Positions 18,706 to 38,392 of a DNA stretch of 64,000 nucleotides are shown here, piece after piece; the first letter of the stretch is position 1; every line of letters starts with the position of its first letter. The notes beneath the pieces are model-generated. The model ran no database searches. It was not told the origin of the DNA and saw only the letters and a list, made by a program, of their open reading frames with translations. Made by a program: the position numbers and the translations under genes. This stretch comes from an uncultured Wenzhouxiangella sp. (GTDB taxonomy: Bacteria > Pseudomonadota > Gammaproteobacteria > Xanthomonadales > Wenzhouxiangellaceae). The DNA is taken from positions 6,711 through 70,710 of the forward strand of contig CAZDFS010000008.1 of NCBI GenBank assembly GCA_964504865.1. The letters are read 5' to 3'.

Positions 18706-21270
18706 TCAGAGTGAGTCGAGGAGCGCCTGCGTCTTTCGCGTCTCCGGGTGTTCGCGGCTGGTCTCGCGGATGTAGACCTCGAGGAGCGTTCGAACCTCCT
18801 TTGATGAAACGGATCCTGGCGCGAGGCGGTGGCGGCTTTCAAGGGCCTGACGCCTGGCCGTCAGGCTGAAAGGATGATCGAGGCCCATCGCGTCGATGAC
18901 GGCCCTCGACGCCAGGTCATGCAGGGCCATCGCCTCGTCGGCGCGACCCAGGCCGGCGAGGCTTTGGGCGCGATTGGATTCGCTTAGCCAGACAAAGGGA
19001 TGGTTCTCGCCGAACGCCTCGCGCATCAGGGCCGTCGTGCGCTCGGCCTGCGGCAAGGCTTCGTCGTATCGCTGAAGGATATTGAGCAGTTCGGTCAGGT
19101 TGTAACTCAGGAGGAGGTAATACTCATAGCGCTCATCGAAGCGGGCCTCAGTCTCCCTCATCAGTTCTCGAATAAGCGCCTCGCCCTCGTCATAGCGCTG
19201 CTGCGCATTGAGGACGTTTGCCATATTGGCTCGTAGGCTGACGAGTTCGCGAAAGGTAATTCGGTCCGGATTCGATTCAAAGATCGACATGGCCCGCGAC
19301 TGGATCGCTTGCGCAGAATCCAGGTCACCGAGTTCGTAGTAAAGGCCCGACATGTTGCTCAGGTTCCGGAACTGATCGGTGGACCCCTGCCCGAACAGGT
19401 TGCCGTAGAGATCGTTCAACTCGCCCATGACATCGAGCGCTTCCTGCTTGCGATTGATTGCCTGAAGCGACACGGCAAGATGATCGAGGGCCCGGACTCG
19501 GTTGAGCAAGCGCTGTTGAGGATGGCGATTCAACCAATCCAGCGTGGCTCTGGCGGTTCCAATCGCCTCATCGAATCGACCGCGAAGTTGATGCAGGCGG
19601 GTTTGAGCAACCAGGATGGTGTAGCCCAGATTATTGGTCGCGGTCTCCGGATCCGGAACGCGAGGAAGAAGAGTTTCGAGCAAACGCTCGGCCTCATCGA
19701 GTCGATTCAGCTGCAGCAGACTGGTCACTCGGTGCTTGCGCGCGAATAGAAACCAATCGCTGTCTCGCGGGAGTCGGTCCCGGAAGGTAGTTTCGAATGT
19801 CTCGGCACGCGCGATCACGTCCTCGAGATCCCCGCGACTCTCCAGGGCGGCGATGATCTCCAGCTCAAGCGCGGGCTCCAGTGAGTCATTGAGTGGCGAA
19901 ATCGTCTTCAGCTTCTCGAGCCCCAGGTTGGCCTGTTCGATCGCATCATCGTCGAGATCCATCACCTGGTAGGACTCGGCGAGCGCCAGATGGACCGCCG
20001 CCTGGGCCTCGGGCTGACCCGTGAACTGCCTCTCGACGTCCCGAGCGGCGAAATCGAGCATCTCCTCGACGGTCATGTCGCGGACCCGGCCGCTTTCATC
20101 GGGCGCGCTGAGGAGGCGCTGGAGAAAATCGTTGACCGCAGCGGTATTGCGCTGCTCCTGCTCGGCCACGGCACGCGCCTGATTCGCCTGGATCAGGCCC
20201 CAGCTGGTAAAGATCAGGCCGAGCAGGAGCGAGGTCGTGATCGCGCCGATTGCGATACGTCGGAACCGGCGCTGCGGTGCCGCACGAATCGAATCGATGG
20301 AGGCCAGGATCGCATCGAGGCGGGGACGCGCATCGGGATCGTGGTCCAGCATCGATGCAACCAGCCTGGCCAGCGGACGTCCGAGCCTTCGCTCGAGGCT
20401 TCGAGCGCCAATGGGCGCAGCCCGTCGATGCAGCTCACGCAGGGCGTCCCAGTCATCGGCTTGATGCACCGGCACGCCCGTGCTCGCGCGATACAGGGTG
20501 GCGCCCAGGGAATAGACATCAGACGAGGTAGACGGCGACTGTCCGAGGACGGCTTCCGGCGCCATGTAGAGCGGTGTTCCCGACGCCATCGCCGGTCCGG
20601 CCGCTTCCGGCGAACGATCCAGACTGGCACCGAAATCCATCAGCACCCACTGGCCGCCGTGATCCTGCATGATGTTCGAGGGTTTGACGTCGCCGTGCAG
20701 AAGGCCCGCGTCGTGCACCGCGCGCAATCCCAGCGCGAGAGATTCGATCAGCGCCAGCCAATCGGCCTGGCTGAAAGCTGCGCGCTTGGAATCCAGATCA
20801 GACAGGGTCTTGCCATTAATCAGGTCGCACCAGAGCCCCGGCCGCCCCTCATGAATCGCCGCGCCGTGGACTGCCAGCACGTTGGGGTGCCGCACCAGCG
20901 CAAGCTGCCGGGCCTCGTGCAGAAAGAGCTGGGACTGGAAGGGACGCTGCTTGCCGGTCTTGAGAAGCTTGAGTGCAACGTCGCGATCGAGAATTTCGTC
21001 GTAGGCGAGAAAGACCTCGCCGAAGCTGCCCTCGCCGATGCGCTGCAGCACCTTGAGATGGCCCCAGCTGAACAGGGTCGGACGCGCCCCCTGGCTCGGA
21101 TGCTGACGCTCGCCGCCGTGGAGCACGAACAGTTGCTCGATCTCCTTGAGCTGTTCGGCCAGGCCCTCGACGTCCCCGGGCAACCCCTCGAGAGCGTCAG
21201 ACGACCCGGACAGGCGCTCGAGGATGCTCCTGGCTCGCAGGTCCGGTGGTCCCTTTCCTCGGCGGCTCAC
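18706..21270 (-). CDS. Transmembrane Ser/Thr protein kinase with C-terminal TPR domain
   Basis: 854 aa. GxGxFGxV-like loop (IGEGSFGEV), ALK, HGDVKPSN (non-RD), DFG and APE motifs. TM helix (IAIGAITTSLLLGLIFTSWGLI) followed by about 480 aa of TPR-like repeats. Confidence 0.85.
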   Translation of the reverse strand: MSRRGKGPPDLRARSILERLSGSSDALEGLPGDVEGLAEQLKEIEQLFVLHGGERQHPSQGARPTLFSWGHLKVLQRIGEGSFGEVFLAYDEILDRDVALKLLKTGKQRPFQSQLFLHEARQLALVRHPNVLAVHGAAIHEGRPGLWCDLINGKTLSDLDSKRAAFSQADWLALIESLALGLRAVHDAGLLHGDVKPSNIMQDHGGQWVLMDFGASLDRSPEAAGPAMASGTPLYMAPEAVLGQSPSTSSDVYSLGATLYRASTGVPVHQADDWDALRELHRRAAPIGARSLERRLGRPLARLVASMLDHDPDARPRLDAILASIDSIRAAPQRRFRRIAIGAITTSLLLGLIFTSWGLIQANQARAVAEQEQRNTAAVNDFLQRLLSAPDESGRVRDMTVEEMLDFAARDVERQFTGQPEAQAAVHLALAESYQVMDLDDDAIEQANLGLEKLKTISPLNDSLEPALELEIIAALESRGDLEDVIARAETFETTFRDRLPRDSDWFLFARKHRVTSLLQLNRLDEAERLLETLLPRVPDPETATNNLGYTILVAQTRLHQLRGRFDEAIGTARATLDWLNRHPQQRLLNRVRALDHLAVSLQAINRKQEALDVMGELNDLYGNLFGQGSTDQFRNLSNMSGLYYELGDLDSAQAIQSRAMSIFESNPDRITFRELVSLRANMANVLNAQQRYDEGEALIRELMRETEARFDERYEYYLLLSYNLTELLNILQRYDEALPQAERTTALMREAFGENHPFVWLSESNRAQSLAGLGRADEAMALHDLASRAVIDAMGLDHPFSLTARRQALESRHRLAPGSVSSKEVRTLLEVYIRETSREHPETRKTQALLDSL

Positions 21271-21848
21271 TTCATCGCCTCGGCCAGCTGCAGGAGCGAG
21301 CGCGACACGAGCATGCGCGCGCTGTTGGCCGACGGCGTGTCAGTCGCCGCGGCGATCTCGGGAAAGGTGTAGCCGAATTCAACTCTGAGCATTACGGCCT
21401 CTCTGGCCTTGTCGGTCAGAGTCATTAATGCCGCTTCATAGCGTTCCAGCACATCGAGGCCGATCGCCTCGCTCATCACCGAGGCCTCCGGGTCATTCGG
21501 TTCAGCGTCGGAATCGGCGAAGCCATGTCGATTGCGGCGGGTGACGCGACGGATTTCCATCCGCACCTGGTTGAGGAGAATGGTGCGGAGATAGGCCAGA
21601 AACGCGCCCTCGCGCAGGGCCTCGAAGTTGTCAACGTGCTTGAGCGCCTGAATCAGACTGGACTGCACCAGATCCTGGGTTTCGGACAGGTCGCGCGCAT
21701 AGCCGGGCAGTCTGCCGTGGGCCCAGCGGGTCAACAGGGGAAGGAATCGTCGACATAGCTCGTCGCGCGCCGAATCCTCACCCTCGGACACCCGATTGAG
21801 CAGCGTTGCGGTGGATTCCAGCGGCTGGTTCATCACAAAGCCCGGCAT
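21267..21848 (-). CDS. ECF-type RNA polymerase sigma factor (kinase-associated)
   Basis: 193 aa. Sigma-2 (…DLVQSSLIQALKH…) and sigma-4 HTH (FGYTFPEIAAATDTPSANSARMLVSRS). Its stop overlaps the kinase start (ATGA). The start may instead be the second ATG (MNQPLE). Confidence 0.85.
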   Translation of the reverse strand: MPGFVMNQPLESTATLLNRVSEGEDSARDELCRRFLPLLTRWAHGRLPGYARDLSETQDLVQSSLIQALKHVDNFEALREGAFLAYLRTILLNQVRMEIRRVTRRNRHGFADSDAEPNDPEASVMSEAIGLDVLERYEAALMTLTDKAREAVMLRVEFGYTFPEIAAATDTPSANSARMLVSRSLLQLAEAMK

Positions 21849-21974: not shown

Positions 21975-24590
21975 TCAGCTGGCGGCCTTCTGGTAGCTCC
22001 GCCCCAGGAGAACGCGGGCAAGCGCGGGCAGCAGCAGCATGGCGCCAATCATGTTGAAGATGAACATGAAGCCGAGCAGCACGCCCATATCGGCCTGGAA
22101 CTTGAGCTCGGAGAACAACCAGGTGCCCACGCCCACGGCCAGGGTGATGGCCGTGAAGAAGACCGCCTTGCCGGTCAGCCTCAGCGTTCGCAGATAGGCC
22201 TCGTCCAGGTCCATACCCTCCTCGAGGAAGCTGCGCATGCGACTGAAGATGTAGATGCCGTAATCAACGCCGATGCCGACACCCAGGGCAACCACGGGCA
22301 GCGTGTTGACCTTCAGGCCGATGCCCATGAAGGCCATCAGACTGTAGGCAAGGTAGCTGACGAGCACCAGCGGAAGCACGATGCAGTAGGTCGATCGTCC
22401 GCCGCGGGTCAGGAACAGGAGCACGGCCACCAGGCCTGCCAGACCCCATGCAAACATGGGTTGACTCAGGGTGGCCGGCGACAGGAAATAGGTGGCCAGG
22501 AAGGCCGCTGTCGGCGGCACGACAACGGTCAGGAAGCCGCGGATGGATCCGAAGGTCAGCAGGCAAAGGACGATGATGGCGCCGTAGACGTAGAGCAGCA
22601 TCGGCGTCTGCGCTGCCGCGACTTCCTGATTCGTGGCCGCCATGACGCCCACGTTGCCCGTCGCCAGACGGAAGCGCAGGCAGTCGTCACAGCGCTCACC
22701 CTCGGTCGTCGCGTAATCGCCCTCGACGGCACCCGCCGGGGTGAAGCCCAGCCCCTCGACGTAGATGTCAGCCTGCAGCTCTTCAACTCGGGCGACAACG
22801 CGATTGATGGTTTCGGCCTTGTGATCTTCGAGGAACACCATCACCGGCATCGCACTGCAGTCCTCGTTCAGAAGGCCCGTGCCGGTTTCGATCCCCGACA
22901 GGTTCTGACGCATGATGAACTGATTGCGCGGCAGCACCTGCCAGCGAATATTGCCTTCGTTCCAGCCCGCGTTGACGATCTTCGCGATCGCAGGGAGCGT
23001 GACCACCTGCTGCACGCCCTCGACGTTGGCCATGTGCCAGGCGAAGCGGTCGATGGCTTCCATGACCTGGTAGGACTCGGTGCAGGCCGACGGTGCCGTT
23101 TCAGCAATCACGGAGATCAGATCCGTGCCCAGCGCGAAGCGATCGGCGATCAGGCGGGAATCCTGGTTGTAGCGGGCATCCGAGCGCAGCTCGGGCACGC
23201 CGGGTTCCGAGTCACCGATCTGCATGTCCTGGGATTTGACCCAGGCAAAGGCAAACAGGCCGACGCCGATCAGGACCGACAGCACCGCCACCCCCGGACG
23301 CGTGAAGCTGGCGATCAGGTTCCAGATGGCGCTGGGCTGCTGACCCTTGGCGAACTGGCGTTGACGGAAGCGACTCTCGTTACGCAGGCGCACGTAGGAC
23401 AGCAGCACCGGCAGCAGGACCAGGTTGGTGAAGATGATCACGGCAACACCGATGCTGGCGGTCAGCGCCAGTTCCTGGATGATGCGAATGTTGATCAGCA
23501 GGATGGTCAGAAAACCGATCGTGTCCGAGATCAAGGCAATCGACCCGGGCGCCAGCAGGCGGGCAAAGGTGGCCTTTGAGGCCTCGAGGCTGGAAACGAT
23601 CGGGACGTCGTGGAGATTGGCTCCGTCCTGCGCCAGACCGACTGGCGAATGGCCGCCGAAGAGCTTCTCGGCGTTCCATCCACTGATCATCTGCACGCCG
23701 TGGCTGACGCCGATGGCGAACACGAGGAAGGGCGTCAGGATATTCATTGGATCGATCCCGAAACCCAGCACGCTGAGCAGCCCGAGCTGCCAGATAACGG
23801 CGGTCACGGAGCAGACCAGCGGCAGCACCGTTAACCAGATCGATCCGGAGTACAGGAAGAGGAGGATCGCCGTGATGGCAAAGGCGACCCCAAAATAGGT
23901 CACGACGCCGCGGGCTCCATCGGCAATGTCGCCGACGATCTTGGCGAAACCGACGATATGAACCGTGTGCGATTCGTCCTCGAACTCGCTGCGGATACTC
24001 TCGAGCTGCGCGGCAACGTCCTGGTAGTCCAGCGCCTCGCCGGTGCTCGGATCCTCCTCGAGGAGGTTGGCCCAGACCATGGCGCCGGAAAAGTCTTCGG
24101 CCACCAGTCGACCGACTTCACCGGACTTGACGATGTTCGATCGGACCCGCTCGAACATCTCGGGCGAGGGCGCGAAATCCGCCGGAATGACGTTGCCGCC
24201 GGCAAAGCCGTCCTCGACGATCTCGACAAAACGAACGTTGGGCGTGAAGATCGAGCGCACGCTGGCGCGATCCACGCCGGGAATGAAGAAGACCTGGTTG
24301 CTGATGCGCTCGAATTTATCGAAGAACTCGGGCGTGAACATGTCGCCTTCCTGGTCGACCAGGGCGACCATCACTCGATTGGCGCCGCCGAACTCGCGCT
24401 CGTACTCGATAAAGGTCTGCATGTAGGGATGTTCGAGCGGCAGCTGTTTCTTGAAGCCGGCGTCAACACGCAGCTGCAGGCTGAAGAACAGGGCCGCGGC
24501 GGTACCTGCGATAAACAGCAGCAGGATCAGCGGGCGAATCGAGAAAACGGCATCGGCGATCCGCCGTGCCAGCTTGGGTTGATCACTCAT
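21975..24590 (-). CDS. RND-superfamily (MMPL/HpnN-like) inner-membrane transporter
   Basis: 871 aa. Two blocks of about 6 TM helices, each preceded by a large soluble loop. N-terminal ...FFSLQLRVDAGFKKQLP... is typical of the RND transporters that co-occur with DUF1302/DUF1329 genes. Confidence 0.85.
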   Translation of the reverse strand: MSDQPKLARRIADAVFSIRPLILLLFIAGTAAALFFSLQLRVDAGFKKQLPLEHPYMQTFIEYEREFGGANRVMVALVDQEGDMFTPEFFDKFERISNQVFFIPGVDRASVRSIFTPNVRFVEIVEDGFAGGNVIPADFAPSPEMFERVRSNIVKSGEVGRLVAEDFSGAMVWANLLEEDPSTGEALDYQDVAAQLESIRSEFEDESHTVHIVGFAKIVGDIADGARGVVTYFGVAFAITAILLFLYSGSIWLTVLPLVCSVTAVIWQLGLLSVLGFGIDPMNILTPFLVFAIGVSHGVQMISGWNAEKLFGGHSPVGLAQDGANLHDVPIVSSLEASKATFARLLAPGSIALISDTIGFLTILLINIRIIQELALTASIGVAVIIFTNLVLLPVLLSYVRLRNESRFRQRQFAKGQQPSAIWNLIASFTRPGVAVLSVLIGVGLFAFAWVKSQDMQIGDSEPGVPELRSDARYNQDSRLIADRFALGTDLISVIAETAPSACTESYQVMEAIDRFAWHMANVEGVQQVVTLPAIAKIVNAGWNEGNIRWQVLPRNQFIMRQNLSGIETGTGLLNEDCSAMPVMVFLEDHKAETINRVVARVEELQADIYVEGLGFTPAGAVEGDYATTEGERCDDCLRFRLATGNVGVMAATNQEVAAAQTPMLLYVYGAIIVLCLLTFGSIRGFLTVVVPPTAAFLATYFLSPATLSQPMFAWGLAGLVAVLLFLTRGGRSTYCIVLPLVLVSYLAYSLMAFMGIGLKVNTLPVVALGVGIGVDYGIYIFSRMRSFLEEGMDLDEAYLRTLRLTGKAVFFTAITLAVGVGTWLFSELKFQADMGVLLGFMFIFNMIGAMLLLPALARVLLGRSYQKAAS

Positions 24591-25629
24591 GGCTCACTCC
24601 GTCTTCTCCGACGAGAATCTTTTCACCACTGTCTTTGAAGAGAACCGCCGCGTAGGTGCTGCCCAGGCGATCCTCCTGGAGGTCGAATTCGCGGGCCCGG
24701 GGGTCGTAGATCAGCTGCGCCGCTCCCGCACCCACCATCAACGCGCGTCCCCGGGGATCGACAGCGCCGCCTTTCAGCGTCGACACGAGCGGGTTTTCGA
24801 GCTCGGTCCAGCTCTGGCCCTGATTGCGCGAGAGCTGGACATGCCCCCTCAGACCAAAAGCCAGAATTTCCGAATCCAGCTGGAGCAGGCCGAACATGGA
24901 CCCGGCGTAGGGAAACCGGAAAGCTTCCCAGTTGACGCCACCGTCGACGGACCGGAAGCCATAGCCGCGCTCGGCAGCGATCAGCCAGTCATCATCCCCG
25001 ATCGCCAGAAAAGCATTGAGGTGGCACTCCATGAATTCATAGCATCCGCGGTCGAACAAGGCATCTTCGCCAAAGAGCTCCTCATCCATGGTCGAATCCT
25101 CAGCCGCCTCGGCGGCAAGGGCCTCCCAGTCGATATCCTCCGAGGTCACGAGGTCGGCCATTTCCAGGATGTCCCAATCGTCACCGGCGTTTCTGGTGCG
25201 CATGAACAGGCCGTAGGCACCGATGGCCACACCGTTGTTGGCGTCGAAGAAGTGCACATCCAGCAGGGGTTTTTCCGCCTCCGGATCGAAATGCTGAAGA
25301 ACCCACGTCTGGCCGAGGTCTCGGCTGTGGATGATCGCCGAATCATGTCCGACCGCCCAGAGGCGCCCACCGGAAAAGGCGACGCGCGTCAGCGTCGACC
25401 GAACAGGAACGGTCTCGGCCTGTTCCCAATTCTCTCCGTCGGAGGACAGCACCACGTGGCCACGCGCACCGACGGCAACGTAGCGCTGACCCGCGCGCTC
25501 GATGTCCAGCAGCAGGCTTTCCGCCGCCAATCGGGCCTCCTGAGCCGGTTGCGGTTCGCTCATCTGAGCCAGGGAAAGCCCCGGCAGGAGCAGAGTGATC
25601 GAAACCAACGTGAACAATATCGACTTCAT
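24583..25629 (-). CDS. Periplasmic BNR/Ycf48-like beta-propeller protein
   Basis: Signal peptide MKSILFTLVSITLLLPGLSLA and repeated S-x-D-x-G-x-x-W sialidase/BNR motifs (SSDGENW, SRDLGQTW, TRNAGDDW, SVDGGVNW, SRNQGQSW). Start set at ATG 25629, behind AGGAGAAAGG. Confidence 0.78.
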   Translation of the reverse strand: MKSILFTLVSITLLLPGLSLAQMSEPQPAQEARLAAESLLLDIERAGQRYVAVGARGHVVLSSDGENWEQAETVPVRSTLTRVAFSGGRLWAVGHDSAIIHSRDLGQTWVLQHFDPEAEKPLLDVHFFDANNGVAIGAYGLFMRTRNAGDDWDILEMADLVTSEDIDWEALAAEAAEDSTMDEELFGEDALFDRGCYEFMECHLNAFLAIGDDDWLIAAERGYGFRSVDGGVNWEAFRFPYAGSMFGLLQLDSEILAFGLRGHVQLSRNQGQSWTELENPLVSTLKGGAVDPRGRALMVGAGAAQLIYDPRAREFDLQEDRLGSTYAAVLFKDSGEKILVGEDGVSHE

Positions 25630-25832
25630 GCCGCCTTTCTCCTGATTCTCTAGCACGTATCTCTCGGCAAGCTTTCGTGTCCGGGACTGCCCCGCGGCGG
25701 ATTCACCCCGTGCCGTCGGCTCAGTACGGATACGGCTCGACGCTGCGGTTGCCTTGATCAGGGTCTTCCGTGACCGCTGATCGACGGCGAAAACCTGTCG
25801 GAGCCGCGAGCCTGAAGCTCGGGCAGTCGCGT

Positions 25833-25863
25833 AAAAAAAAGGCCGACCGGAGTCCGGTCGACC
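25833..25863 (-). terminator. Rho-independent terminator between the DUF1329 and BNR genes
   Basis: The minus strand reads GGTCGACCGGACTCCGGTCGGCC followed by TTTTTTTT. Confidence 0.7.
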
Positions 25864-25887
25864 TTCCTTGAGGTCTATCCAGTGAAA

Positions 25888-27852
25888 CTACCGGCGACCA
25901 CGAGTCCGCAGCGCCTGCGGCGTGTAGCTGCTGATGCTCAGCGGAACGTTGAAGGTATTGACCGGATCCTGATTGTCCAGCCCCGTCGCTACGTAGCGAC
26001 CCGACTGCAGATCCATATGGCTCTCGATCGAAGACCAGTACGTCGGCACATCGTAGTACTGGATCGTATGCGCTTCCGAGGCACGCCACAGCTCACCACG
26101 CTGGTCGTAGTGGTCGATCAGTGCGATCTGGTAGGTGTCCTCGTCGAGGTAGAAGGTGCGACGAGAATTGATGTGGCGGGTGCCTTCGCGCAGACGCGCA
26201 TCGACGATCCAGACCCGGTGCAGCTCATAGCGAGTCAGGTCGGCATTGAGGTGCCCCGGCCGCACGATGTCATCGGGCGTCAGCTCGCCGCTGTGGATCT
26301 CGTAGGCGTTGTAGGGAATGTACATCTCCTTCTTGCCGACGATCTCCCAGGTGAAGCGATCCATGGCGCCATTGAACATGTCGGTCATGTCGTTCGTACG
26401 CAGGCCGTCGGAGGCGGTACCGGGGTTGTCGTAGGCGATGTTCGGCGCACGACGGACGCGGCGCTGACCCGGGTTGTAGATCCAGGCCTGGCGTGGCGTT
26501 TCGATCTGGTTCAGCGTCTCATGGACAAGAAGAATGTTCCCGGCCAGACGGGCCGGCGACTCGACTTCCTGGAAGAAGTAGAGAAGGATGTTGTTCGTGT
26601 CCTCGATCGAGGAACCCTCTGCGTAGTACAGGCCCAGCAATTCCTCGCGCAGGCGAACGAGCTGGTAGCTTCCCGTGGGTGTGGGCGCGACCTGGTTGTT
26701 GTAGCGAACGCCGCCCGTGCCCTTGTACTTGAGCTTGTGGTTCCACATCAGCTCATAGGAATTCTGCGGCAGCGGGAAGGGGAATCCCTCGGAGACGTCG
26801 GCCACGCCTTCGCCCTCGGAAATCAGGCGACCGGTCGCCGCATTCCGGATGGTCGCGTCGTAAATGAACTGCGGGAAGGCAGCGCTGCGACGGGTCGGGA
26901 AGACACGCATCTTGTAGGTGTCAGGGTAGCGTTCGAAGGTCGCCATCTGTCCCACCGAAAGACGGTCCGCGTAGTCCTGATAGTTGTCGCCGGTAATGAC
27001 GAACAGCGGCTCGTCGTCGGGGTAGGGATTCAGGTGACGATCGCCCGGCTGATAGCCGGCGGGCCAATCGTCGAGACCGATGCCTCCGGTCCAGGGCGGA
27101 ATCGTGCCATCGGCGTTGCCGGCCTGGATGGAACCCATGGGGGTCAGATCGTTACCAAGGCGGGCGATGTTTTCCGGCGTGCGCGGGATGATGAAATCCC
27201 CAGCGTCCGACGGTACGGCAGATGCGGCTGGCGGTGCCGCGGCAGCCACTGCCGCAGCGGCCTGTGCCGCTTCCTCGGCCGCCATGCGCTCGGCCTCAGC
27301 CGCTTGTTCTGCTGCCATGCGCTCAGCCTCAGCCTGCTCGACGGCAAGTCGCTCCGCTTCTGCCTCGGCCTCCGCCGCGACGCGAGCCGCTTCAGCTTCG
27401 GCCGCTTCGCGTTCGGCGGCCAGGCGGCCTGCTTCCTCTTCGGCGCGACGCTCGGCTTCGGCCGCCATGCGAGCAGCCTCGGCTTCCGCTTCGGCCGCCA
27501 TTCGCGCAGCCTCTTCTTCAGCAGCTATGCGGGCGGCTTCTGCCTGTGCCTCGGCTTCTGCAGCCTGGCGGGCGGCTTCGGCTTCGGCCTCGGCAGCCAT
27601 GCGCTCGGCTTCCGCGGCTGCCTCGGCGGCGGCTCGCTCGGCTTCCGCCTCGGCAGCCATCCGCTCGGCCTCGGCCCGCTCGGCAGCTTCGCGCTCTGCC
27701 TCTTGCGCTTCGAAGCGATCCGACATCTCCTCCTGCGTGGAGTCCATCGACTCGTCCTGAGTTTCAGGACCCGTCGAACAGGCGACCAGCGCCAGGCTGG
27801 AGAACAGCGCAAAGGCCAGAATCAATAGCGTTTTGGTTTGAATCGATTTCAT
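25888..27852 (-). CDS. DUF1329-family (LolA-like fold) lipoprotein with a long N-terminal Glu/Ala-rich spacer
   Basis: 654 aa. Lipobox LALVAC with Ser at +2. Residues ~47-200 are an AEAEAERMAAE-type repeat and the C-terminal ~430 aa resemble DUF1329 (…YDNPGTASDGLRTNDM…). Confidence 0.8.
   Translation of the reverse strand: MKSIQTKTLLILAFALFSSLALVACSTGPETQDESMDSTQEEMSDRFEAQEAEREAAERAEAERMAAEAEAERAAAEAAAEAERMAAEAEAEAARQAAEAEAQAEAARIAAEEEAARMAAEAEAEAARMAAEAERRAEEEAGRLAAEREAAEAEAARVAAEAEAEAERLAVEQAEAERMAAEQAAEAERMAAEEAAQAAAAVAAAAPPAASAVPSDAGDFIIPRTPENIARLGNDLTPMGSIQAGNADGTIPPWTGGIGLDDWPAGYQPGDRHLNPYPDDEPLFVITGDNYQDYADRLSVGQMATFERYPDTYKMRVFPTRRSAAFPQFIYDATIRNAATGRLISEGEGVADVSEGFPFPLPQNSYELMWNHKLKYKGTGGVRYNNQVAPTPTGSYQLVRLREELLGLYYAEGSSIEDTNNILLYFFQEVESPARLAGNILLVHETLNQIETPRQAWIYNPGQRRVRRAPNIAYDNPGTASDGLRTNDMTDMFNGAMDRFTWEIVGKKEMYIPYNAYEIHSGELTPDDIVRPGHLNADLTRYELHRVWIVDARLREGTRHINSRRTFYLDEDTYQIALIDHYDQRGELWRASEAHTIQYYDVPTYWSSIESHMDLQSGRYVATGLDNQDPVNTFNVPLSISSYTPQALRTRGRR
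27253..27714 (-). repeat. In-frame imperfect tandem repeat encoding the (A/E/R)-rich helical spacer
   Basis: Translated units EAERMAAEAEAE / EAARMAAEAEAE / EAERLAVEQAEAERMAAEQ recur. The antisense ORFs of this stretch are Ala/Ser/Arg-rich artefacts. Confidence 0.85.
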
Positions 27853-27866
27853 GATCGGATCTCCCC

Positions 27867-29756
27867 TCAGAACGAGTAGTTGACAGTGGCCGAGACAAAG
27901 TCACGATCGCTGAGCAAGTTGTTGATACCACCACCAAAGAAGTTGGTGTATGCGAAGCCGACCTGGAGATTGGCCAGGTAGCTGAAGTTCAAGCCGACGG
28001 TGGCCTGCATCCGATCTTCGATGAACGGCCCACCCGGCCCCGGCGTTACGCCCTGGACATCGTGATTGAAGGCCAGGCGCGGACTCATGTTCCATGAGGT
28101 TCCGAAGACCGAGTTGTAGGTCGGTGCGATGACCAGGCGGTAGCCCCAGCTGAACGGCGTGGCAAAGCCGTCGGTCGTGGTCGTGGGGTTGCGCCCGGCG
28201 CCAGCGAATCGGTTCGGTCCACCGCCGGTATCCGTACCGGGGCCTTCGAAGCGAAGCTCGTCCTGGCTCGGCAGGTCCCAGAAGTGAGTCGCGCCGAGCT
28301 CGGCGACGACGGCAACCTGATCCGCGCCAATGAAGTTGTTCGGCCCGAAAACGTTGGTAAAGGTCATCTGCAGCTGCGACGACTTGCGGCGCTCGTAGCC
28401 CGGGATGAACTCGCCCGGCCCGTAGGATCCCAGCTGGCTGCGGAACCGACTGTACTCGTCGGGGATGGCGCCGTTAAGGGGCGACAGACCCGCAAAGAGC
28501 AGCTCGACATCATCGATCTGGACCGGCACGTTGTCACGGTAGGTCAGCTCGCCGGACCAGGACCAGTTCCCTGGAATCGTGGTGTTGAAGCTCAGGCCCA
28601 ACATGTCGATATCTTCCGGAAACTCGACGATCACGGCACCGGTGGAAACATCGCTGCTGGTCACGGCCTGACCCGAAAGCACCGGCAGGCGGCTGTGATA
28701 ACGCAGGTAGTAGAGACCGAATTCCGTCTCGTTCAGTCCGGCGGCAAAGTAGCGGAAAGCAAGACCGTACTGGCCGCTGTCCGAGGCCTTGTTGTCTTCT
28801 GCCCGGGGGAACGCTGCGGAGCAGCCAGCACCTACCAGGGCCGGGGACAGGTCAGTGCGGTCGCTGGCGCCGAAATTGCCCGCCCCGCAGACCGTATCGA
28901 AGAGATCCGCGTTGATCACCGGCTGCGGCACCAGACCGAAGTTCAGCATGGCGTAGCGACCGCCGGCGGTGGCGAAGTCGTTGGTCGAGAAGAAGGTCCC
29001 GACCGGTTCGGCCTCGACCTCGTCGAACTCGAACATGACCAGTGCTTCCATCGACAGGTTGGTGGTCAGGTCAATGGAGCCCCAGAGCATGTTCAGGGGC
29101 AGAAACGCGTTTCTCAGCTCGGCCCCTGCGGTCCGAATCGCGGTGATATCGACCGGGTTGATGACGTTCAGGCCACCGGGAATGAAGGTGGACTCCCCCC
29201 AGCTGATGACCTGGCGGCCAGCGCGCATCGACAGCAGGCGATCGCCGACCTCGAAATCCGCATAAGCGTAGGCGTCGAGCAGGCGTGCCCGTGAGCCGAC
29301 GCGATCCTTGGCGCGGTCGGTCAGGAAGTCGGCGTCGTTGAGCTCGAAGTCGTAGTTGTAGTCGCCGCGAACGAAGAAGCCGTAGTTCTTGTAGTCGACC
29401 GCCAGCTCCGAAGTCACGCGGACCGCGTTGAAGATCAGGTCGTTCTTGTCGAAGTTGGTATTGCCGTCATCGGAGTTGGCGGAAAAGCGCCCGAGCGCTG
29501 CCTCTTGAGCAGCGGGCGGTGCCGCGAAAATCGCCGGATTGAAGCGCGATTTTGCGACCAGGTCGTTGTCCCGACCCTCAACGCGCATGCCGACGCCGTA
29601 GCTGACGGTGGTGTCCAGGCGAATGCTGACCTCATCGGTGCTGAGGTCAACGGCCTGGGCCGGATTGGCCGTCAAAGCAAGACCGATCGCGCTTGCCAAC
29701 AGGCAGGGACGGATCAGGCCTGCTTTGGGCAGTGTGTTTTTCTTGAGCCGATTCAT
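27867..29756 (-). CDS. DUF1302-family outer-membrane beta-barrel protein
   Basis: 629 aa. Signal peptide ...LTANPAQA, alternating beta-strand pattern and a C-terminal ...ATVNYSF (terminal Phe beta-signal). Confidence 0.8.
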   Translation of the reverse strand: MNRLKKNTLPKAGLIRPCLLASAIGLALTANPAQAVDLSTDEVSIRLDTTVSYGVGMRVEGRDNDLVAKSRFNPAIFAAPPAAQEAALGRFSANSDDGNTNFDKNDLIFNAVRVTSELAVDYKNYGFFVRGDYNYDFELNDADFLTDRAKDRVGSRARLLDAYAYADFEVGDRLLSMRAGRQVISWGESTFIPGGLNVINPVDITAIRTAGAELRNAFLPLNMLWGSIDLTTNLSMEALVMFEFDEVEAEPVGTFFSTNDFATAGGRYAMLNFGLVPQPVINADLFDTVCGAGNFGASDRTDLSPALVGAGCSAAFPRAEDNKASDSGQYGLAFRYFAAGLNETEFGLYYLRYHSRLPVLSGQAVTSSDVSTGAVIVEFPEDIDMLGLSFNTTIPGNWSWSGELTYRDNVPVQIDDVELLFAGLSPLNGAIPDEYSRFRSQLGSYGPGEFIPGYERRKSSQLQMTFTNVFGPNNFIGADQVAVVAELGATHFWDLPSQDELRFEGPGTDTGGGPNRFAGAGRNPTTTTDGFATPFSWGYRLVIAPTYNSVFGTSWNMSPRLAFNHDVQGVTPGPGGPFIEDRMQATVGLNFSYLANLQVGFAYTNFFGGGINNLLSDRDFVSATVNYSF

Positions 29757-29770
29757 CGAATTTCTCCCTG

Positions 29771-31918
29771 TCAGTCGGTCTGGATCAGTGACGTGTCGCC
29801 GACCAGAACCGCGGCGCCACCGGAGGCCATCATGCTGGTGGCCTGGGTCTGCATTTCAGTCGTCACCGCAAGCGAAGCCGTCGGGTCGAGCAAGGACCCG
29901 TGGCTACCCTGAATGAAGCGGACGGCGCCGCGAATACCGGCCGGGTCAACGTTCTGACCGGCGTCGGTAATCGGGCTCAAGCCCATCACGCGGATCAGGG
30001 GCTCGGTGCCCGACAAGGGCGCCCCTGGCACAGCGTTCGGAATGACCGTATCGCCCGCCACCTGATGGAGCAGGACGGAATTGGTCTGAACCGTCGTTGC
30101 GCCCCAGTTGATCGGATCAGCGGAATCGAGGACGGTCTGGGCAATCAGCAGAAACTGATTGAAGTCTGCCGAGCCAGGCTCGATGCCGGCGGCCTGCAGA
30201 CCGCCGCGAACGACGGGCCCGAAGGTCTGGGAACCGTTGAGCAGCTGCGCGATGCCGCCACCCGGCACCGAAAGAACCGCGTTGTTGACGGTCGGCTCGA
30301 CGGCGAGGAAGGGAATGCCGTTGATCGAACCCAGCGACAGGCCGGTGAAGTTGATGCTCGACCCGTCGATGTCGCCGAGCTGGTCACCGTCCAGGTCGAT
30401 GTTCGGAATATTCAGCGCCAGGATGCTCAGGTCCGCCTGCGCCTGGCGATTGTTGTCCCGCGAGGTCAGCAGCGAGGGCAGATTGATGAACCACGCCCCG
30501 GACGAGTCGATCGCCATATCCGGCCCCGGCGCACCGGTCTCGTTATTCTGCAGATCGAGATCGAAGGTCCGCTCGCGGGCAAACGGTCCGAAGGGCGTAT
30601 TGCCGATGTAGAAGGGGTTGGTCACATCGGTAATGCCGTGGAGCGGCTGGTCGATGGCGATGGTCGCCAGACCCTGGGAGGCAAAGGCGTCGGCGATCGC
30701 CAGCATCTGGGTCCGGTTGCCGGTGATGCCGTGCTGGAAGATCACGATGGGCCAGCCAGCGGCAGGCCGGGTCTGGCCCGAGCTGGCGTTGGGCACGGTC
30801 ATGATCACCGGCACGCGCTCGGTCGAGGTCTGGACCGGGAACGGATTGGCCACGGTCACGGCCGTGGACGTCGGGTCAAGCCCGAGTTCGCTGAAGGGCG
30901 GGACGTAGGCGCCCGGCTCGGCGGTCCAGAAGTCGCTCAGCGGGGCCGTCGGATTCTCCGGCGTGGGCACGCCGAGGTAGTAGGGCACTTCCATCATGCC
31001 GATGTAGACGTTGGCAATACCCGGTGAGGCGCCCGGCGGCAGCACGTCCGCCGTGGTCAGGCAGACCTCCGGGGCGGGGCAGGCCTGAGCGACCGTGATC
31101 GAGGTCGGCTGCGCCTGGGAGCGGATCGCGCTCAATACCGGCGTGACCGCCTGGGTCGTGCCGGTGAAGGACAGCACGATGTCGTCGGGATTGATGCCGG
31201 CCGAGGCCGCGGCGGCTTCCTGGGCGTTGGTCAGCTGGCGCAGCGGCTCGAGAGCCTGAGCCGTGGCGTTGTCGAAGAGCGTATCGGTGCTGTTACCGCC
31301 GCCATCGACCAATGGCGACGTGCGCTTGGTGATGAAGTAGGTCTGCGACGGTGTCGCTGCCGTTCCCGCCGTGTCCAGGATGCCGTTGGTGGCGACGACC
31401 ATGTAGCCGGTCATCTCCTGCAGGGGCTGCAGGGGCACGACGGCAATCGTGCGGCCCGTCGGGTCCAGGGTTGCGACATAGTCGACGCCCGGCGTCAGCT
31501 CGCGGTTGATGCCACCCACGGCAATCGTGCCCTGAATGAATGCCACCTCGAAGAAGCGCACCGTATTGGCGTTGACCGTGTTCGGGTCGATGTCCTGGGA
31601 GAAAGAAAAGGTCCATGGCGTGACCGGACTGAAGCCGTCGAGCTGGGACAGGGCAACGGCGGGATCGCCGAAGTCCGTCGGATCGGCCACCGGCGGGTTC
31701 AGGGTCAGATCGCCCGACCCCGACAGCAGCAGGTTGGTCGGGAACGGCAGGTTGCCGCCGGAGGGATCAAAGATGGCTTCATTGATCTGCGTGGTCGGAT
31801 TGCCATCCGGGTTGGTCGCCGGGTTGACGGGCGTGGCTCGGTCAACGCTGGACGAGCCGCCGCAGCCGACAAGCCACAACAGCGCCAATCCAGGAGCCAG
31901 AAGCGGGCGTACCTTCAT
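29771..31918 (-). CDS. Lipoprotein lipase/phospholipase of the VolA/Pla-1/cef type
   Basis: 715 aa. Lipobox LWLVGC, alpha/beta-hydrolase core IVIFQHGITGNR...IDQPLHG and nucleophile elbow GLSLG (GxSxG). Confidence 0.72.
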   Translation of the reverse strand: MKVRPLLAPGLALLWLVGCGGSSSVDRATPVNPATNPDGNPTTQINEAIFDPSGGNLPFPTNLLLSGSGDLTLNPPVADPTDFGDPAVALSQLDGFSPVTPWTFSFSQDIDPNTVNANTVRFFEVAFIQGTIAVGGINRELTPGVDYVATLDPTGRTIAVVPLQPLQEMTGYMVVATNGILDTAGTAATPSQTYFITKRTSPLVDGGGNSTDTLFDNATAQALEPLRQLTNAQEAAAASAGINPDDIVLSFTGTTQAVTPVLSAIRSQAQPTSITVAQACPAPEVCLTTADVLPPGASPGIANVYIGMMEVPYYLGVPTPENPTAPLSDFWTAEPGAYVPPFSELGLDPTSTAVTVANPFPVQTSTERVPVIMTVPNASSGQTRPAAGWPIVIFQHGITGNRTQMLAIADAFASQGLATIAIDQPLHGITDVTNPFYIGNTPFGPFARERTFDLDLQNNETGAPGPDMAIDSSGAWFINLPSLLTSRDNNRQAQADLSILALNIPNIDLDGDQLGDIDGSSINFTGLSLGSINGIPFLAVEPTVNNAVLSVPGGGIAQLLNGSQTFGPVVRGGLQAAGIEPGSADFNQFLLIAQTVLDSADPINWGATTVQTNSVLLHQVAGDTVIPNAVPGAPLSGTEPLIRVMGLSPITDAGQNVDPAGIRGAVRFIQGSHGSLLDPTASLAVTTEMQTQATSMMASGGAAVLVGDTSLIQTD

Positions 31919-32276
31919 CGTATTTTCTCCCCGAAGCTCGAGTGCTTTATTAGGTTTGCTTGATATACACGGACCGATCTCAGGCGGGCCGCTTTCTGCG
32001 CGTATGATATGAACATCATCTTAAGATTTGCAAGCAACTGGCCTTTTTGTTGAAAGAAAATTAGGGTCTGCAACCTAATTTCGAGAAACGCATGGCAGTC
32101 GCTCGGCATCGATACCGCAGCCGCCATGATTTGATCGAGGCAAAGGGCATGCTCCAAGACCGGTCTCGCCAATGCCTAGTCGACGCCAGCCCCCGCGGCG
32201 TTCGGGAAAGCGAGGGCCTACCCGAGGACCCCGATCAACGTTGCCCGGCACGCTCGCTGCCATCGCGGAGACCACG

Positions 32277-33554
32277 ATGAAATCTGCTGAGACAAAAAGA
32301 CCACTGCTCGCCAGCCTGGGCCCTGGCCTGCTCATGGCCGGTGCCGCCGTCGGCGTATCGCACCTGGTCCAGGCCACGCGCGCCGGGGCCGAGTATGGCC
32401 TCAGCCTCCTCGGCCTGGTGCTCCTGACCTGCGTCCTGAAGTATCCCTTTCTCGAATTCGGACCACGCTACGCGGCGGCCACGGGCGAGAGCATGATCGC
32501 CGGCTACAAGCGCATGGGCGACTGGGCGCTGGGCATCTTCACCCTGATCACCCTGACAACGGCATTCATCATCCTGGCCGGCGTCACGATCGTCACTGCT
32601 GGATTGACCGGGGTCCTGTTCGGCCTGGACTACTCCATCGGCCTGCTCTCGGCGCTGGTCCTGGGAGGCTGCATGCTGCTCCTGGCCATCGGCCGTTTCC
32701 GGGGCCTCGATCTGCTGATGAAACTGATCATGACGATCCTGTCCCTGTCGACGCTCGCTGCCGTCGTGATCGCCCTGGGCGCCGAACCCGACTGGCAGGC
32801 GATCGGCAGCGCCGGACAGATCGATGCCCTGTGGAGCGCCGCCGGCCTGGCCTTCATCCTGGCGCTGCTGGGCTGGATGCCGATTCCCCTCGACGTGGCC
32901 GCCTGGCACTCGCTCTGGACCCTGGAGCGCGCGCGCCAGACTGGCCATGCACCGAGCGTGCGTGCGGCCGTCATCGATTTTCGCATCGGCTTTATCGGCG
33001 CGACGGTGCTCGCAGCCCTGTTCCTGATCCTTGGTGCCCTGGTCATGGCCGGGCAGTCGGAGTCGATACCCAGCTCGTCGGTCGGATTCGCGGCCCTGCT
33101 GATCGAACTCTACACGGCCAATCTGGGCGACTGGTCCAGGCCCCTGATCACGATCGCAGCCTGGACGACGATGTTCTCGACCACGCTGGCGGTCGCCGAT
33201 GCCTACCCGCGCGCCATTCGCGAACTGATCGAGATCAGCGGCGCCGCCGACACCGAGGACCCGACACCCAACCTGCCGCGTTCGCGCTACCTGAGCGCCT
33301 CGATCCTGCTCTCGGTCGGTGCCCTGGTCATCATCCATTTCTTCGGTGACCGATTCACCGCGCTCATCGACTTCGTCACCACCGTGTCGTTTCTCGCCGC
33401 CCCGGTCCTGGCCTGGCTCAGCCTGTCGCTGCTGACCGGCCCGCATACACCGGCGGCGCACCGTCCCGGACCGTTCCTGCGCACGCTGGCCTGGACGGGC
33501 CTGGTCTTTCTCACGGGATTCAGCCTGGTCTGGATCGGCTGGCGCCTTTTCTGA
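32277..33554 (+). CDS. NRAMP-related divalent metal cation transporter
   Basis: About 425 aa and 11-12 TM helices. N-terminal ...LGPGLLMAGAAVGVSHLVQATRAGAEYG... resembles the NRAMP/MntH-like family. Start set at ATG 32277 (MKSAETKR). Confidence 0.65.
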   Translation: MKSAETKRPLLASLGPGLLMAGAAVGVSHLVQATRAGAEYGLSLLGLVLLTCVLKYPFLEFGPRYAAATGESMIAGYKRMGDWALGIFTLITLTTAFIILAGVTIVTAGLTGVLFGLDYSIGLLSALVLGGCMLLLAIGRFRGLDLLMKLIMTILSLSTLAAVVIALGAEPDWQAIGSAGQIDALWSAAGLAFILALLGWMPIPLDVAAWHSLWTLERARQTGHAPSVRAAVIDFRIGFIGATVLAALFLILGALVMAGQSESIPSSSVGFAALLIELYTANLGDWSRPLITIAAWTTMFSTTLAVADAYPRAIRELIEISGAADTEDPTPNLPRSRYLSASILLSVGALVIIHFFGDRFTALIDFVTTVSFLAAPVLAWLSLSLLTGPHTPAAHRPGPFLRTLAWTGLVFLTGFSLVWIGWRLF

Positions 33555-33593: not shown

Positions 33594-35375
<1,782 letters not shown>

Positions 35376-37833: not shown

Positions 37834-38392
37834 CGTCGACGAGCTGCAGATACAGCCAGGCCTTGGCGGCTCGCCAGTGGCGCTTGGCTGTCGACGGAGA
37901 AATATCCATGGCCGCGGCGGTCTCTTCGATCGTCAGACCGCCGAAATAACGCATCTCGACGAGGCGTGCCTGATCCGGGTGGAGCGCCTCGAGCTTGAGG
38001 AGCGCCTCGTCAAGGGCAAGCAGGTCGATGGCTTCGGTCTGGCCCGTCGGCGTGCCGTAGATCAGCGTCGGTGCGACGTCGTTATTGCGCTTGCCGGCCT
38101 GCTTGCGTCGACCGGAGTCGATCAGGATCTGGCGCATCATGCGCGCGGCAACGGCGATGAAATGGACGCGATCATTGGCCTGGAGCCGGTCCACGCCGAG
38201 GAGCTTCAGATAAGCCTCGTTGACCAGAGCGGTCGGCTGCAGCGTGTGGTTGGCGCGCTCGCCAGAGAGCTGGGCCCGAGCAACGCGCTTGAGCTCCGAG
38301 TAAACGGCCTCGATCACCTGATCTCGCGCGTCGGATTCCCCCATCGACCAGCGCTTGAGAATTCGAGTGATGTCTCGGCCAGCTTCCGCCAT
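37823..38392 (-). CDS. ECF-type sigma factor (TIGR02999-like, kinase-associated)
   Basis: ITRILKRW...GESDARDQVIEAVYSELKRVA...HTLQPTALVNEAYLKL... plus a C-terminal HTH (GGLTIEETAAAMDISPSTAKRHW). Overlaps the kinase start by 11 nt. Start set at ATG 38392. Confidence 0.85.
   Translation of the reverse strand: MAEAGRDITRILKRWSMGESDARDQVIEAVYSELKRVARAQLSGERANHTLQPTALVNEAYLKLLGVDRLQANDRVHFIAVAARMMRQILIDSGRRKQAGKRNNDVAPTLIYGTPTGQTEAIDLLALDEALLKLEALHPDQARLVEMRYFGGLTIEETAAAMDISPSTAKRHWRAAKAWLYLQLVDDVH

Follow-up and report, generated by a model that had tools for sequence, protein, structure and literature searches.

We describe a five-gene envelope cluster in a 64,000-nucleotide stretch of contig CAZDFS010000008.1 from an uncultured Wenzhouxiangella sp. 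(the window), in which a lipoprotein lipase of the VolA/Pla-1 family leads a cassette of four genes for a DUF1302 outer-membrane barrel, a LolA-like DUF1329 protein, a BNR propeller and an RND transporter. In relatives the lipase is found beside either fadL or this cassette, and genomes with DUF1302 mostly have no canonical FadL. Considering these patterns together with published phenotypes of related cassettes, we propose, with our confidence standing at about the halfway mark, that surface lipolysis is coupled here to FadL-independent inward transport of the acyl product within one lipid-scavenging module. We are highly confident that lipase and cassette are coupled in function and have to do with lipid esters. 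The lipase-led form is a variant of a known envelope cassette; the partner switching and the FadL complementarity are new comparative results. The open reading frames of the cluster fill 21975-31918 and are, in cluster order:

29771-31918, minus strand: lipase, VolA/Pla-1 family lipoprotein lipase, 715 aa
27867-29756, minus strand: DUF1302, outer-membrane beta-barrel protein, 629 aa, starting 14 nt past the lipase gene
25888-27852, minus strand: DUF1329, LolA-fold protein, 654 aa
24583-25656, minus strand: BNR, periplasmic Ycf48-like BNR/Asp-box beta-propeller of COG4447 type, AmeC-like
21975-24590, minus strand: RND, HAE3/MMPL-type inner-membrane transporter, 871 aa, its start overlapping the BNR stop by 8 nt

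An earlier note on this DNA, made from the letters alone, had described five co-directional minus-strand genes separated by short gaps, and most of its description holds: every reading frame lies where it was placed, and profile scores uphold all five family assignments. The GLSLG motif of the lipase (residues 526-530), the terminal Phe of DUF1302 (...NYSF), the lipoboxes LVGC of the lipase and LVAC of DUF1329 and the BNR/RND overlap were all found again, and hydropathy agrees with the approximately 12 transmembrane segments given for RND. The intergenic distances are 14, 14, 231 (258 to the likely BNR ATG) and -8 nt, and short gaps are thus the rule at three junctions but not between DUF1329 and BNR, where the 231-258 nt hold a terminator considered below. 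Likewise, the five-fold SxDxGxxW repeat of the propeller consists of four strict [ST]x[DN]xGxxW boxes, the fifth being the variant SSDGENW. The window has a G+C content of about 64%, and the source genome is a draft of 164 contigs. The lipase shares 79% identity with its counterpart in Wenzhouxiangella marina, and the named close homologues of the lipase are nearly all from Wenzhouxiangella.

Synteny of lipase and cassette in relatives, the test that the earlier note had set for itself, turned out to be strong. Of 60 relatives sampled at the level of the order (36 of the genus and 24 from 11 other families), 55 carry DUF1302, or 56 with the window's own genome, and in 52 of these 56 the lipase lies immediately upstream of DUF1302 on the same strand, the other four loci being broken by contig ends. 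The four complete genomes of this sample that do not carry the lipase do not carry DUF1302 either. When 20 regions were mapped in full by tblastn (12 order-level and 8 class-level), the order lipase-DUF1302-DUF1329-BNR-RND was found in all 12 of the former and in five of the latter, which belong to other gammaproteobacterial families with lipase identity of about 40%; the BNR gene holds the same position in every full cluster mapped, and among the variants are a genome whose lipase gene follows the pump gene and a genome with an insert of 4 kb. The lipase-first five-gene order occurs in at least seven other gammaproteobacterial families. Among the 80 closest loci of named genomes, all Lysobacterales, which come from an independent scan, 54 show the complete order, another 20 run into a contig end but agree with it as far as they go, and in six the lipase stands by itself; represented among these taxa are Wenzhouxiangella, Marinicella gelatinilytica, Dokdonella immobilis, Tahibacter, Rudaea, Aquimonas, Ahniellaceae and Thermomonas. 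That the five-gene, lipase-first order is kept across Lysobacterales/Xanthomonadales is a new observation, and the literature we searched holds no report linking the cassette to a VolA-type lipase.

Elsewhere the lipase is met with either of two partners. Of 400 evenly sampled Gammaproteobacteria, 42, not counting the window's own genome, carry the lipase family. The lipase gene lies directly downstream of canonical fadL in 19 of them, as in Vibrio, and is linked to a full-length DUF1302 cassette in 10; no genome has it linked to both, and in 13 it stands alone. The neighbours of the lone lipases are housekeeping genes (ABC-F, MetH, SppA, FtsY) or spurious open reading frames, and no third type of partner emerged among these neighbourhoods; nor did tblastn find FadL near the lone lipase in six Rhodanobacteraceae/Dokdonella loci. 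In one family from another class of the phylum (f248, loci L143-L146), the order is lipase and then fadL, the reverse of the Vibrio fadL-volA arrangement, and FadL there occupies exactly the position that the cassette has in the window. In a maximum-likelihood tree of 52 lipases the cassette-linked ones do not form one clade, the well-supported branches forcing at least five changes of partner state, and the approximately unbiased test gave p = 6e-64 against their monophyly, the group having been defined after the tree was seen. Moreover, two species of one genus (g110) bear the two alternative partners. The lipase has therefore swapped its outer-membrane partner repeatedly, as would be expected if FadL and the cassette were functionally equivalent.

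The distribution of FadL itself is in line with such equivalence. Taking a match with an E-value of 1e-50 or below as canonical (strong) FadL, we found it, among the 399 sampled genomes besides the window's own, in 6 of the 49 with full-length DUF1302 and in 175 of the 350 without (odds ratio 0.14, Fisher p = 2e-7); counted by family, FadL occurs in 5 of 31 DUF1302 families. The DUF1302 quartet is present in about 12% of the sampled gammaproteobacterial genera, pseudomonads and hydrocarbon degraders included. For the lipase-bearing genomes the division is nearly complete: 12 of the 14 with DUF1302 are without strong FadL, and all 28 without DUF1302 have it. Within the order, strong FadL was seen only in the four complete genomes that have no cluster and in one genome with both, and the 36 other sampled members of the genus are all without it. 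Contrasts within families (f56, f101, f133 and f193) run in the complementary direction in all four cases. The genome of the window, searched as a whole, has no match at all to FadL (PF03349), and it encodes a full-length FadB-type beta-oxidation enzyme together with a second, FadN-like one. In many bacteria the cassette is thus found in FadL's usual place, which suggests a second route of lipid uptake, and the uptake role put forward in the earlier note thereby gains comparative evidence on two counts, the alternative pairing of the lipase and the scarcity of FadL in DUF1302 genomes.

The arrangement of transcription signals qualifies the picture of a single unit. Two features are relevant:

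25833-25869, minus strand: intrinsic terminator between DUF1329 and BNR, GGTCGACCGG-ACT-CCGGTCGGCC then T8
32004-32033, minus strand: sigma-70-like promoter candidate, TTGCAA-18-TATCAT, upstream of the lipase gene

The terminator lies 25 nt past the DUF1329 stop, and its hairpin (-24.3 kcal/mol, z -4.83, none of 200 shuffles as stable) is followed by U8; a simple terminator scan did not list it, and folding confirmed it. Since so strong a terminator sits in this gap, the block probably comprises two transcription units or one attenuated unit. The terminator would part an outer-membrane unit (lipase, barrel and carrier) from an inner-membrane unit (propeller and pump), and the same two halves occupy separate loci in pseudomonads, a separation of outer-membrane from inner-membrane genes that the internal terminator parallels here. 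Of the one trans-envelope machine that the earlier note had imagined, the conserved linkage of lipase and cassette stands, whereas the terminator separates its outer-membrane half from its inner-membrane half. The evidence for the promoter is weak, because it comes from a consensus scan only, which returned three sites against 1.6 expected. One might take the terminator, together with the lone lipases in the six Rhodanobacteraceae/Dokdonella loci and in 13 class-level genomes, to mean that the lipase is a chance neighbour of the cassette with no functional link to it. We give this very little credence, as the adjacency spans more than 12 families at 36-57% identity, arose more than once, and in one genome takes a permuted form, with the lipase after the pump.

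Two experimentally studied systems bear on the function. In Vibrio cholerae, VolA is a surface-exposed lipoprotein lysophospholipase co-transcribed with fadL, growth on lysophosphatidylcholine needs both hydrolysis by VolA and uptake by FadL, and VolA reaches the cell surface in E. coli as well (PMC3656444). The window resembles this fadL (VCA0862)-volA (VCA0863) pair in that a lipoprotein lipase with a GxSxG serine, from the one family TIGR03502/PF12262, lies next to, and apparently in one operon with, an outer-membrane conduit for hydrophobic molecules; in V. cholerae the coupling of surface hydrolysis to fatty-acid uptake is experimentally shown. Unlike in that pair, the conduit here is not FadL but a larger barrel unrelated to it, DUF1302, which comes with a carrier in the periplasm, a propeller and a proton-driven pump, and the lipase gene precedes its partner. 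The second system is AmeABCD of Castellaniella defragrans 65Phen, a tetrapartite HAE3-type RND system whose deletion caused poorer growth on monoterpene hydrocarbons, more accumulation of Nile Red and lower tolerance of monoterpenes (PMC6394551). It shares with our cassette the same four families in the same order (DUF1302, DUF1329, COG4447/Ycf48-like propeller and HAE3/MMPL RND). It differs in that a VolA/Pla-1 lipoprotein lipase leads the cassette here, that DUF1329 here is lipid-anchored via a 156-residue helix, and that AmeABCD was read as an exporter, outward transport being reported on indirect evidence, whereas the comparative evidence presented above favours uptake.

The same four families were also found to be cofit in Shewanella, Kangiella and several pseudomonads (Sama_1588-1591; PP_0765/0766 with PP_2018/2019), and were first proposed to export a cell-wall component; this group and AmeABCD are, like the cluster here, tied to the use of hydrophobic substrates. 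In Pseudomonas putida, PP_0765/0766 (DUF1302/DUF1329) and PP_2018/2019 (BNR/RND) are specifically required on Tween 20, and on butyl stearate PP_0765/0766 and PP_2018 are required but the RND pump is not, whereas the cassette mutants grow normally on the free fatty acids laurate and myristate. A fitness result on fatty-acid esters that the earlier note had mentioned for a DUF1302/DUF1329 pair matches these published data. An ester phenotype that appears in pooled cultures points to a cell-private function such as uptake. In Shewanella and P. stutzeri, mutants show pleiotropic fitness effects. Published AlphaFold-multimer studies, among them work on the P. putida proteins, predict a DUF1302-DUF1329 complex with an interface predicted template modelling score (ipTM) of 0.84 and an alternative DUF1329-BNR-RND complex, DUF1329 being predicted to bind either the barrel or the BNR and RND pair. 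In stating that no mechanism had been assigned to these genes, the earlier note overlooked this modelling and the experimental interpretation of AmeABCD as an exporter. Lastly, catabolic islands for hydrophobic substrates repeatedly contain DUF1302/DUF1329 genes, and the same holds for channels of the FadL/TodX family.

These phenotypes also admit a reading in the opposite direction. Let us assume that the RND pump removes membrane-damaging amphiphiles (free fatty acids, lysolipids and detergent-like products of lipolysis) from the inner membrane or periplasm and expels them via DUF1329 and DUF1302, and that the lipase is linked to the cassette through the stress of lipolysis at the cell surface. 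All solved or characterised relatives of the pump export, Tween 20 is a detergent, so that the Pseudomonas phenotype could reflect sensitivity, and loss of ameABCD raises Nile Red accumulation and lowers limonene tolerance (PMC6394551). However, the deletion mutant tolerates up to 5 mM limonene when supplied with acetate and grows poorly on 3 mM limonene alone, which fits a defect of uptake equally well (PMC6394551), and the P. putida mutants, which grow as usual on laurate and myristate, also fail on butyl stearate, which is not a detergent. Efflux or tolerance would, moreover, leave unexplained why the cassette stands in FadL's place beside the lipase and why DUF1302 genomes are so often without FadL. 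We regard it as the main rival, unlikely though deserving of serious attention.

The lipase scores 393.6 bits against TIGR03502 (VolA/Pla-1), above the curated cut-off of 383.9, and 59 bits against PF12262 (cut-off 22.3). In its lipobox (...LWLVGC-GGSS), which most relatives keep, Cys19 is followed by Gly, not Asp, at position +2, and the catalytic triad of Ser528 (in GLSLG), Asp623 and His673 is invariant in two alignments, one of 21 diverse and one of 40 closer homologues. A confident AlphaFold2 model (predicted local distance difference test, pLDDT, 89.2; predicted template modelling score, pTM, 0.86) comprises a beta-rich, Ig-like N-terminal half and an alpha/beta-hydrolase C-terminal half, for which Foldseek returned only generic alpha/beta hydrolases (esterases and monoglyceride lipases in the PDB); a sequence search found no solved structure for the family. 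By analogy with VolA, the enzyme is probably anchored in the outer membrane and exposed at the surface. Its substrate is more likely to be (lyso)phospholipid than triglyceride, because VolA acts on lysophospholipids and because no growth on olive oil is seen in Wenzhouxiangella AB-CW3, which preys on bacterial cells; this last observation makes a nutritional role on triglycerides unlikely.

In many homologues from outside the order (L017-L021, L024, L032, L039, L040 and L044) Asp stands at +2 after the lipobox Cys, which under the sorting rules of E. coli means retention in the inner membrane; judging from these sequences, either the sorting rules differ in those taxa or the localisation does. 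Several cassette-linked homologues have Asp at +2, and this, along with the need for the P. putida cassette on esters but not on free fatty acids, would fit an arrangement in which the barrel admits intact esters or lysolipids, a lipase facing the periplasm from the inner leaflet of the outer membrane cleaves them, and carrier and pump handle the products. Against it, VolA is found on the cell surface in V. cholerae and E. coli alike and needs FadL after hydrolysis (PMC3656444), and, as the genome of the window has no FadL, the cassette would still be required for free fatty acids, whatever their source. Import of intact esters, a sub-variant of the inward model, strikes us as improbable, and surface cleavage followed by entry of the acyl product remains our preferred sequence of events.

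The DUF1302 protein matches PF06980 over its full length (573 bits), has a signal peptide and is, like the lipase adjacent to it, encoded by a single-copy gene in this genome. A comparison with PF03349 (FadL/TodX) gave no match, the Pfam scan returning PF06980 only, and the protein may work like FadL though it is not a member of that family. A sequence search found no solved structure for the DUF1302 family; published work predicts a barrel of 18 strands to which DUF1329 binds. We note in passing one open frame of 2502 aa with two DUF1302 matches (G106:C1:1283534-1289293) and a genome (G280) with seven DUF1302 copies over several contigs, several of them 800-880 aa in length; on their sequences, these point to fused or extended variants of the barrel.

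The DUF1329 protein matches PF07044 at 482 bits over residues 285-649, and its score against the Pfam LolA_like model, 29.2 bits, falls just below the cut-off of 30. The AlphaFold2 model of its globular domain has a fold of the LolA superfamily, Foldseek matching it to LolA3 (9tp6, target-normalised template modelling score, TMt, 0.84), 3bk5 (0.76), the DUF1329 structure 4z48 (0.72), LolA, LolB and RseB. The only match of the protein to a solved structure by sequence proved to be a coiled-coil artefact of its Ala/Glu-rich helix and was set aside. Most of the 19 relatives inspected are about 452 aa long and begin with an ordinary signal peptide, whereas DUF1329 here is a lipoprotein (lipobox LVAC) in which residues 39-194 (nt 27271-27738), a stretch of 156 residues rich in Ala, Glu and Arg, are modelled as a single continuous helix, predicted to be about 23 nm long at 1.5 Å per residue, and a disordered Ala/Pro hinge separates this helix from the beta-rich globular domain. 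Such a tether occurs in 14 of 81 relatives, mostly Wenzhouxiangella, and also in G044 (family f9, locus L015) and in a metagenome-assembled genome labelled 'Alcanivoracaceae' (L078). As modelled, a tether of periplasmic length fits a carrier that has to reach both membranes. In the proteome of AB-CW3, the matches listed include an unrelated short DUF1329/MMPL pair.

The LolA fold raises the thought that the cassette serves the building of the envelope, either by exporting an endogenous envelope lipid or by bringing lipoproteins such as the lipase to the surface, with DUF1329 as chaperone and DUF1302 as translocon. The pleiotropic fitness phenotypes in Shewanella and P. stutzeri would suit such a role, as would the fact that the route of VolA to the surface is not known (PMC3656444). 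On the other side, VolA is surface-exposed even in E. coli, where no match to DUF1302 exists, 35 of the 49 DUF1302 genomes are without such a lipase, and a housekeeping role predicts neither FadL complementarity nor residence in catabolic islands; we consider envelope biogenesis quite improbable.

As for the inner-membrane half, the BNR protein matches PF14870 (PSII_BNR/Ycf48) at 48.2 bits (cut-off 27) and PF02012 as well. Its true start is likely the ATG at 25629, which is preceded by an AGGAGA ribosome-binding site, and its predicted signal peptide is MKSILFTLVSITLLLPGLSLA. The RND protein matches PF03176 (MMPL) at 79.5 bits and, weakly, the Patched-SSD model of Pfam; its best NCBIfam match, HAE3 TIGR00921, reaches 140.7 bits and lies below the cut-off of 351.9. 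Hydropathy places large periplasmic loops at 39-227 and 454-664, after the first and the seventh transmembrane segment. Its nearest solved relatives are MmpL3, MmpL4/5 and HpnN.

Putting these elements together, we consider the following scenario. A VolA-type lipase on the outer membrane would cleave acyl esters of exogenous lipids, perhaps from prey or detritus, and the released long-chain acyl product would enter through the DUF1302 barrel, which would take FadL's place beside the lipase. In the periplasm, the LolA-like DUF1329 protein, tethered here by its ~23-nm helix, might shield the product while docking alternately on the barrel and on the complex of BNR propeller and RND protein, and this complex would draw the cargo up to the inner membrane, or into it, at the expense of the proton-motive force. 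The cargo would then feed beta-oxidation and phospholipid synthesis. The logic of the hand-off resembles that of the eukaryotic NPC2-NPC1 system, in which a soluble carrier hands sterol extracytoplasmically to an RND-type membrane protein for insertion into the membrane; this is an analogy of logic only, membership of the RND superfamily being the sole sequence kinship. We favour the inward direction because of the pattern of FadL replacement, because the genome can oxidise fatty acids yet has no FadL, because the P. putida phenotype is cell-private and ester-specific, and because DUF1302/DUF1329 genes recur in catabolic islands. Somewhat more tentatively, falling a little short of even confidence, we extend the scenario to the cassette at large, as a general FadL-independent import route for long-chain acyl and other hydrophobic nutrients across the whole envelope and thus the first bacterial RND-based uptake system, the lipase-led form then being an enzyme-coupled 'lipid utilisome' that would keep the products of surface lipolysis private to the cell.

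A number of considerations weigh against this scenario. The FadL complementarity is a correlation among related genomes that is not corrected for kinship, six genomes have both FadL and DUF1302, and pseudomonads carry both systems. The 35 DUF1302 genomes without such a lipase mean that the cargo of the cassette is not confined to lipase products. The surface exposure, substrate and activity of the lipase are inferred from VolA only, and the cluster is interrupted by a strong terminator. The characterised relatives of the RND pump (MmpL3, MmpL4/5 and HpnN) all move lipid outward, and we know of no bacterial RND importer. Finally, the authors of the only direct study of such a cassette, that of AmeABCD, proposed an exporter (PMC6394551).

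The genes flanking the cluster offer further observations. Two pairs of an extracytoplasmic function (ECF) sigma factor and a TPR Ser/Thr kinase are encoded on the minus strand at 18706-21848 and 35497-38392. The former, directly downstream of RND, was considered as a regulator of the cluster and rejected, as it is absent beside the cluster in all 20 relatives mapped. Upstream of the lipase, a divergent gene at 32172-33554 encodes an NRAMP-like transporter, a neighbour it has in two other genomes of the genus (L005 and L006) as well. Further on, 33594-35375 encodes a dihydrolipoamide dehydrogenase with an N-terminal lipoyl (Biotin_lipoyl) domain, and an lpd homologue is present near the lipase cluster in several other families too (L012, L014 and L016).

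The quartet is widespread and has had clear mutant phenotypes since 2016, without an agreed cargo or direction of transport. The repeatedly evolved link to a lipase and the exclusion of FadL now name a likely class of cargo, the acyl chains of lipid esters, and these comparative results make the function and the direction of the cassette directly testable. If transport is inward, FadL would no longer be the sole outer-membrane route for long-chain fatty acids, the view of bacterial RND proteins as exporters only would be overturned, and the cassette would become relevant to engineering the uptake of fatty esters and hydrophobic feedstocks.

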